From: Eledone cirrhosa
Lineage: Eukaryota
Length of the DNA stretch: 64,000 nt
Direction of reading: 5' to 3'
Assembly (NCBI GenBank): GCA_964016885.1
Contig: OZ024746.1
Coordinates: forward strand, 13,454,001 to 13,518,000
Part shown: positions 16,470 to 26,984 of the stretch, one piece after another
Numbering within the stretch: the stretch's first letter is position 1
Layout: each line of letters starts with the position of its first letter
Notes under the pieces: generated by a model
What the model was told of the DNA's origin: nothing
Seen by the model: the letters and a program-made list of their open reading frames with translations, nothing else
Database searches by the model: none
Made by a program: the position numbers and the translations under genes

Positions 16470-26984
<10,515 letters not shown>

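Follow-up and report, generated by a model that had tools for sequence, protein, structure and literature searches.

In an octopus HP1 gene the middle of three tandem 5' splice sites ends the hinge exon in all eight transcript assemblies, and the first is probably an ancestral mollusc donor

Background

A constitutive exon can acquire an alternative 5' splice site when a new, competing donor arises in the adjacent intron and the reading frame is kept, as described in the accessible text of Koren, Lev-Maor and Ast (2007, PMC1876488). The hinge exon of octopus HP1 shows the same arrangement. It differs from the example given there, in which the ancestral form stays the major one, in that cephalopods have the derived long form as their main or only one, and in that the event appears to span mollusc classes. 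Tandem donors 4 nt apart (A5E-delta-4; Bortfeldt et al. 2008) are the commonest class in human; about 97% of them create a premature stop, and 78% of those stops lie more than 50 nt upstream of the last junction, according to the accessible portion of PMC2423196. The octopus site resembles this class as it is defined in that portion, its third donor lying 4 nt past the second, shifting the frame and placing the resulting stop over 50 nt upstream of the last junction, but the third donor is only a potential member, as no donor-3 transcript was present in eight assemblies.

The closest relatives on record are the long and short hinge forms annotated for mollusc CBX1-like proteins, among them those of Mercenaria (XP_045207957.1/XP_045207958.1) and Patella (XP_050407538.1/XP_050407539.1). 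These pairs share with octopus the same exon end, at the position of the first donor, and likewise carry an in-frame extension of 4 to 6 residues starting Val-Arg or Val-Lys, whereas the cephalopod records hold the long form only. The hinge itself is of functional interest: in the accessible text of PMC9825191, basic patches in the HP1 hinge bind DNA and RNA and form condensates, and in human HP1-alpha such patches drive DNA binding and phase separation.

Two further systems bear on the intron that follows the hinge exon. The decoy or poison exons of SF3B1, OGT and ARGLU1, as presented in the accessible parts of PMC6097662 and PMC7373989, lie in introns of more than 1 kb with internal, non-coding exon-like signals and several donors, features that the octopus intron shares. 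Human decoy exons show mainly under blocked decay, and those examples are documented by intron retention, deep conservation and junctions detected when decay is blocked, whereas the octopus candidates are known from sequence signals alone. In SRRM3/4 microexons, a UGC lies near the acceptor in about three in four cases, according to the available text of 10.1101/2024.09.17.613571. A literature search for HP1 hinge splicing in molluscs or for HP1 poison exons found no paper by title or abstract, subscription papers being mostly outside its coverage, and neither HP1 nor CBX appears in the main text of bioRxiv 10.64898/2026.09.05.749416, which includes O. bimaculoides.

Results

An HP1 gene of five joined exons

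The window analysed here is a 64,000-nt stretch of Eledone cirrhosa DNA (contig OZ024746.1, positions 13,454,001 to 13,518,000). It carries, on the + strand, a CBX1-like HP1 gene, the five exons of which join to encode a protein of 201 aa, identical to the annotated Octopus protein P0038 at all but one residue. In P0038 the Pfam domain Chromo (PF00385) spans residues 36-85 with 84.9 bits (cut-off 25.1) and the chromo shadow domain (PF01393) spans residues 134-185 with 110.8 bits, the former being the chromodomain and the latter the C-terminal domain expected of the HP1 proteins CBX1, CBX3 and CBX5. The 44 residues between the two domains include 15 K/R and 12 D/E, as expected of a basic, charged HP1 hinge, and the top matches in a search of solved structures were CBX5, CBX1 and CBX3 chains.

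Transcripts were sampled from 8 assembled-contig runs (of 21 listed) in 6 studies, comprising one run from the organism itself (X21) and 7 from relatives; most of these runs were taken as RNA by guess, and their spliced joints show that they contain cDNA. The coding parts of the gene are as follows.

14546..14581, + strand: coding end of an upstream exon, encoding the N-terminal extension of a longer isoform (5' end of the exon unmapped)
16456..16502, + strand: exon 2, with the ATG at 16470 (joint 16502-16637 in X21; model matches P0038)
16637..16788, + strand: exon 3, bulk of the chromodomain (joint 16788-16877 in 4/4 runs; Pfam Chromo)
16877..17048, + strand: exon 4, end of the chromodomain and hinge, in its main-mRNA form (joint 17048-18243 in 4/4 runs)
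18243..18343, + strand: exon 5, start of the chromo shadow domain (RNA joints, model and Pfam)
26837..26984, + strand: last exon, coding part up to the stop codon (matched by the loose ends beyond exon 5 in 4/4 runs)

Several observations concern other parts of the gene and family. Loose ends of contigs from runs X10 and X14 match 14546..14581, and protein P0001 starts with the translation of that segment; joining this exon to 16456 gives an N-terminus 17 residues longer, a spliced form found in two relatives' runs, and the donor of the exon pairs very weakly with U1 (-0.4 kcal/mol). Between isoforms X1 and X2, as annotated in Octopus, the N-terminus alone differs. Position 16733 is G (Ala44) in the window and in the run from the organism itself and T (Ser) in three relatives' runs, a lineage-specific change in the chromodomain. 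A divergent chromo-shadow-domain exon with 63% identity (L007; G000:C7:44250204-44250380, - strand) likely belongs to an HP1 paralog. In the 328-aa Argonauta hians model P0034, exons 2-4 occur twice in a row, with the copies joined at donor 2 (see below), a duplication that may be an artefact of assembly or prediction. No intronless copy that could serve as an isoform fossil was found by protein search of the organism's own genome, which returned the exons of the HP1 gene, one paralog exon and three weak hits; a search of the protein atlas gave nothing above 0.9.

Three tandem donors at the end of the hinge exon

The initial annotation had placed three GT sites at the end of an HP1 hinge exon: GAA/GTGAGA at 17037, ACA/GTAGGT at 17049 and TAG/GTATTT at 17053. 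All three are present where the annotation had put them, at the end of the HP1 hinge exon. With the RNA-confirmed exons, donors 1 and 2 are in phase 0 and donor 3 is in phase 1, again as proposed.

17034..17042, + strand: donor 1, GT at 17037; in frame, likely ancestral, with no use seen in cephalopods
17037..17048, + strand: 12-nt exon extension coding VRST (RNA joints and protein model)
17046..17056, + strand: donor 2, GT at 17049; used in RNA and the best U1 pairing among the three
17050..17058, + strand: donor 3, GT at 17053; coincides with +5/+6 of donor 2, is without G at +5 and is out of frame

Use of donor 1 is predicted to give a protein of 197 aa and use of donor 2 one of 201 aa. Donor 3 alone would give a 124-aa product, with a premature stop 87 nt upstream of the last junction; in sequence, the GTs at 17049 and 17053 thus form an A5E-delta-4 pair, the second lying 4 nt downstream of the first and out of frame. 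Four-residue patterns of the form [ST]xx[DE] are CK2-type sites, and the VRST extension holds the sole two such sites of the octopus hinge.

The middle donor is the one used in cephalopod RNA

The sole joint leaving the hinge exon was 17048-18243, found in X21, X1, X14 and X10 (4/4). In the remaining four runs (X5, X6, X2 and X17), the contig ended at 17048 and its loose end continued into exon 5, so that donor 2 (17048/17049) was used in 8/8 transcript assemblies. No contig joint left from 17036 or 17052 and none entered either of the two candidate cassettes described below in these eight assemblies, from which rare forms drop out. Because assembled contigs lose rare variants, the RNA evidence fixes the main form only, and transcripts from donor 3 would likely be degraded and lost from the contigs as well. 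Missing coverage of the intron in relatives' contigs was given no weight.

The proteins agree with the RNA. VRST is joined to exon 5 in 15 of the 18 proteins of the cephalopod clusters, some of which lack a species name and were classed as cephalopod by 92-100% identity. The other three are a fragment that ends early, the O. vulgaris model P0035, which reads into the intron, and P0076, which is without most of the hinge. In a whole-protein search, the best 120 of 3032 hits contained no additional cephalopod cluster of high score.

As 8/8 assemblies and 15/18 proteins carry VRST, the +4 form is the main form and not a variant, in place of the +0 form that the initial annotation had taken as its baseline. 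That annotation had further proposed that one gene may produce at least four hinge variants (+0, +4, +7 and +18 residues) by coupled choice of donor and exon. Only +4 was present in the eight assemblies and 18 proteins, the +0, +7 and +18 forms being found in 0/18 proteins of the cephalopod clusters. One donor alone was seen, which is half of what the annotation had named as evidence against its proposal, in contigs that hide rare forms.

Donor 1 in other molluscs and in other animals

The 9-mer GAA/GTGAGA of donor 1 is identical in two clam genomic contigs (L012 and L014), in both of which a second in-frame donor follows 15 nt after the first. The next exon of L012 has a single acceptor, and the donor layout of this contig fits the X2/X1 isoform pairs of Dreissena and Mya. 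Two non-mollusc contigs (L029 and L019) have a donor-like GT at the matching place, and the acceptor was seen for L029. In read-through ORFs the second donor lay 12, 15, 18 or 27 nt on and was in frame every time.

For 12 named species of bivalves and gastropods, databases hold a long as well as a short isoform, the two differing by precisely the stretch between the first and second donors. In this count two of the three Haliotis names share identical sequences, and Bradybaena was left out, since its two forms have neighbouring locus tags and may be duplicates. The species are Mercenaria, Ruditapes, Dreissena, Mya, Sinanodonta, Crassostrea gigas, C. angulata, Haliotis rubra, H. rufescens, H. 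cracherodii, Patella vulgata and P. caerulea; the X1/X2 pairs come from gene models in databases, with the underlying reads unseen. Short forms are also present among assembly-derived proteins (P0056, P0027 and P0092). Non-cephalopod molluscs therefore have both of the marks of an alternative 5' splice site, the two protein forms and two in-frame donors in the DNA. Donor choice, as the initial annotation had supposed it, is in this sense real for donors 1 and 2 in the family, both isoforms occurring in these 12 non-cephalopod species, but octopus shows donor 2 only.

Other lineages have one form. Long forms only were seen in several other oysters, scallops, a chiton, Aplysia and Lymnaea, and short forms only in Mactra, Gigantopelta, Physella, Biomphalaria, Elysia and others. 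Proteins of annelids (Ridgeia, Lamellibrachia, Paralvinella) and of the brachiopod Lingula were short only. In Mytilus and caenogastropods, no Val occurs at the first insert position and no short form is listed; the missing Val indicates that the first GT is gone. Mytilus proteins (P0063-P0067, P0180-P0193) show a separate isoform pair with a three-residue difference (VRK) at the same exon end. Heterobranch-type HP1s (P0103, P0222, P0226, P0116/P0119) have a more divergent hinge and the same long/short pattern, with inserts that begin Val-Gly.

The insert adds [ST]xx[DE] sites in octopus, oyster, limpet and abalone and none in Mercenaria, and a universal gain of CK2-type sites was therefore rejected. 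A phase-1 donor plus microexon was also rejected as the source of the six-residue clam insert, because in the clam read-through ORF all six insert residues precede an in-frame donor. From these sequences we infer that the exon extension arose early in molluscs.

It is rather unlikely, in our judgement, that octopus retains some use of donor 1, whether slight or confined to certain tissues, and so makes regulated hinge forms of 197 aa and 201 aa side by side, as in oysters and clams. The identity of the 9-mer to the clam donor is consistent with such use. So is the record of Crassostrea, where the short form occurs in annotated models only and the listed assembly-derived members are long, which shows that a minor form can escape contigs. 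Against it stand 0/18 proteins of the cephalopod clusters, including the Octopus isoforms X1 and X2, and 0/8 assemblies, and the retained Val-Arg needs no role in splicing, as the whole cephalopod hinge is nearly invariant. The codons at donor 1 are GTG, which is 1 of the 7 Val codons of the octopus HP1 gene, and AGA, which is 4 of its 11 Arg codons, so that a 9-mer identical to that of clams and written with these codons hints at continued selection on donor 1 as a donor.

Donor strength and the spacing expected by chance

U1 pairing energies were computed against the 5' end of the genome's own U1, whose snRNA genes form tandem arrays with a period of about 2.67 kb (G000:C2:180973544-180995099 and G000:C1128). 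Donor 2 gave -7.2 kcal/mol (+1 to +8), donor 3 gave -5.6 and donor 1 gave -4.6, by a crude measure on which the real donors of this gene span -0.4 to -7.2. The second donor was likewise the stronger by U1 pairing in both clam contigs.

Within the window, 126 sites are as strong as donor 2. A GT follows 4 nt on in 48 of these, as strong as donor 3 in 8, and in 11 of the 126 the 21 nt upstream include an in-frame site that matches donor 1 in strength. Over 799 kb of background, GT occupies +5/+6 in 1408 of 2008 donor-like sites, a share inflated by the G required at +5, and it does so in 3 of the 5 RNA-supported donors of the HP1 gene. Three GTs this close together are thus not much beyond chance; donor 1 stands above chance by homology and not by strength. 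Donor 3 is likely a by-product, part of donor 2's own consensus, given the match to U1.

Splice signals in the hinge intron

The intron downstream of donor 3 contains three sets of splice-like signals. Thresholds for the statistics on the donor cluster and on acceptors were set after the sequence had been seen.

17086..17622, + strand: cluster of five AG/GTAA donor-like motifs, with GT at 17089, 17210, 17469, 17509 and 17616
17172..17209, + strand: 38-nt candidate cassette with an AAG acceptor and a strong donor (sequence only)
17297..17330, + strand: 20/20 pyrimidine tract and CAG acceptor, with a GTGAGT donor 5 nt further on (seen in the sequence)

Five AG/GTAA motifs within 530 nt compare with 0.25 expected. 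None of 2000 simulations at the intron's own composition reached five, and the background held at most 3 per window in 2560 windows of 600 nt. The motif at 17509 matches U1 at 11/11 positions. A repeat or transposon origin of the cluster was rejected, as the region is single-copy in the genome and has no tandem unit. Several of the motifs are preceded by pyrimidine-rich stretches resembling recursive splice sites, and AATAAA occurs at 17409, 17619 and 17718. RNA structure at 16990-17230 was unremarkable (z = 0.75), with inverted repeats that are low-complexity A/T pairs, and the three Rfam matches were all far under the gathering score, with none in the hinge intron.

The two 3n+2 exons that the initial annotation had placed just downstream presumably correspond to 17320-17324 and 17172-17209, both of which fit its arithmetic; inclusion of either was seen in neither RNA nor protein. 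Among the three donors, the 38-nt cassette is in frame with donor 3 only and would then give 215 aa; such a 3n+2 candidate has a chance of about 0.05-0.13 per intron of this length. Joined to donor 3, the 5-nt candidate would give 204 aa. Its size, within the 3-27 nt range, its 20/20 pyrimidines and its GTGAGT donor match a neural (SRRM3/4-type) microexon, and no TGC, a usual but not obligatory companion, lies within 40 nt of 17320, the nearest being about 90 nt upstream. Sites of this type numbered 2 in 799 kb at 18 or more pyrimidines and 0 at 20. This acceptor could just as well mark the start of a 189-nt exon that contains a stop and closes at 17508.

That donor 3 acts together with the 5-nt or the 38-nt exon, so that one gene yields +0, +4, +7 and +18 hinges, appears very unlikely. 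The reading frames do work, and chance alone would produce an element like the 5-nt one only about 0.003 times per intron of such length. Mussels add three residues at the same place, apparently through a further in-frame donor. The residues VGI past donor 2 are kept in two other octopod read-through ORFs, which then diverge; this pattern is compatible with use of donor 3 and also fits constraint on donor 2 alone, the VGI codons doubling as donor 2's U1 match. Donor 3 is without G at +5. The +0, +7 and +18 forms were, moreover, in no RNA contig or protein examined, either cassette breaks the frame with the main donor 2, and both the chance expectation for the 38-nt element and the distance of the nearest UGC from the 5-nt acceptor speak against the proposal.

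The frame is kept in 8 of 101 combinations of donor and cassette. Donor 2 joined to 17320 runs into a stop after two codons, and all single cassettes tested from 17320 onward, joined to donor 1 or 2, break the frame or stop, as poison exons do. These results, together with the excess of AG/GTAA motifs in a single-copy region, suggest that the hinge intron may serve regulated unproductive splicing that lowers HP1 output by decay or retention instead of diversifying the hinge. A poison or decoy exon would be bounded by the acceptor at 17320 and the donors 17325, 17469 and 17509, and splicing at 17089 or 17210 would lengthen exon 4 so that the frame shifts or a stop is reached. We hold this reading tentatively, as a possibility short of even; it is compatible with middle-donor use at the hinge exon. 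Human decoy exons likewise lie in introns of more than 1 kb, often with several splice sites, in the accessible text of PMC6097662 and PMC7373989. The O. vulgaris model P0035 runs into the hinge intron to a stop, and X21 contains three unspliced contigs in the intron, at depths of 2 to 3.3 against 411 for the mRNA exons, one of which, at depth 2, spans the 17320 acceptor. Such low depth is ordinary for pre-mRNA or DNA, however, and no joint to any of these sites occurred in the eight assemblies. The choice of thresholds after inspection weighs against the motif excess, and the sole complete clam intron (L012) has no AG/GTAA motif and no strong acceptor except the real one.

The two ideas could also be combined in a switch with two keys, in which a shift to donor 3 and the 5-nt microexon, either of which breaks the frame by itself, would jointly add three residues beside the HP1 lysine run and the surrounding strong donors would route unpaired choices to decay or retention. 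This is improbable. If it were true, one small intron would set both HP1 dose and hinge sequence, for example in the octopus brain, on top of the mollusc-wide ancestral donor pair.

Discussion

In all eight assemblies the octopus HP1 hinge exon ends at the middle of three tandem donors. On our preferred reading, which we consider probable, donor 1 is an ancestral site that is now minor or silent and donor 3 is likely a part of donor 2's consensus. The joint 17048-18243, the 201-aa protein with VRST and a clam contig with two in-frame donors and one acceptor are its observed basis.

The history would run as follows, its order resting on the named species. In a mollusc ancestor a second in-frame donor, stronger than the first, would have arisen a few codons inside the intron, whereupon the GT(A/G)AG of the old donor became coding, which would account for inserts that nearly always start Val-Arg or Val-Lys. 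Both forms are annotated in clams, oysters, abalones and limpets; mussels and caenogastropods would have lost the first GT and kept long forms only; cephalopods would have retained the donor-1 motif while using the second donor. U1 would pair with +1 to +8 of donor 2, which would outcompete donor 1, and transcripts cut by mistake at donor 3 would be out of frame and likely cleared by nonsense-mediated decay. The four extra residues, directly behind a lysine run, would add two putative CK2-type sites.

This middle-donor account leaves the strong downstream signals unexplained, and these may be poison or decoy exons. Should the intron signals have any function, it is more likely to be unproductive splicing than the making of new hinge variants.

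The octopus tandem donors are themselves mostly ordinary, and the main lead in octopus is the hinge intron with its many closely spaced splice signals, none of them seen in use. The mollusc-wide history of the hinge splice site is recorded piecemeal in database gene models and is apparently undescribed. Bivalves and gastropods share one place at which a minor in-frame choice of splice site is made, with different lineages fixed for the long or the short outcome, and this lineage series is suited to asking what a few Ser/Thr residues beside a lysine run do in the HP1 hinge.
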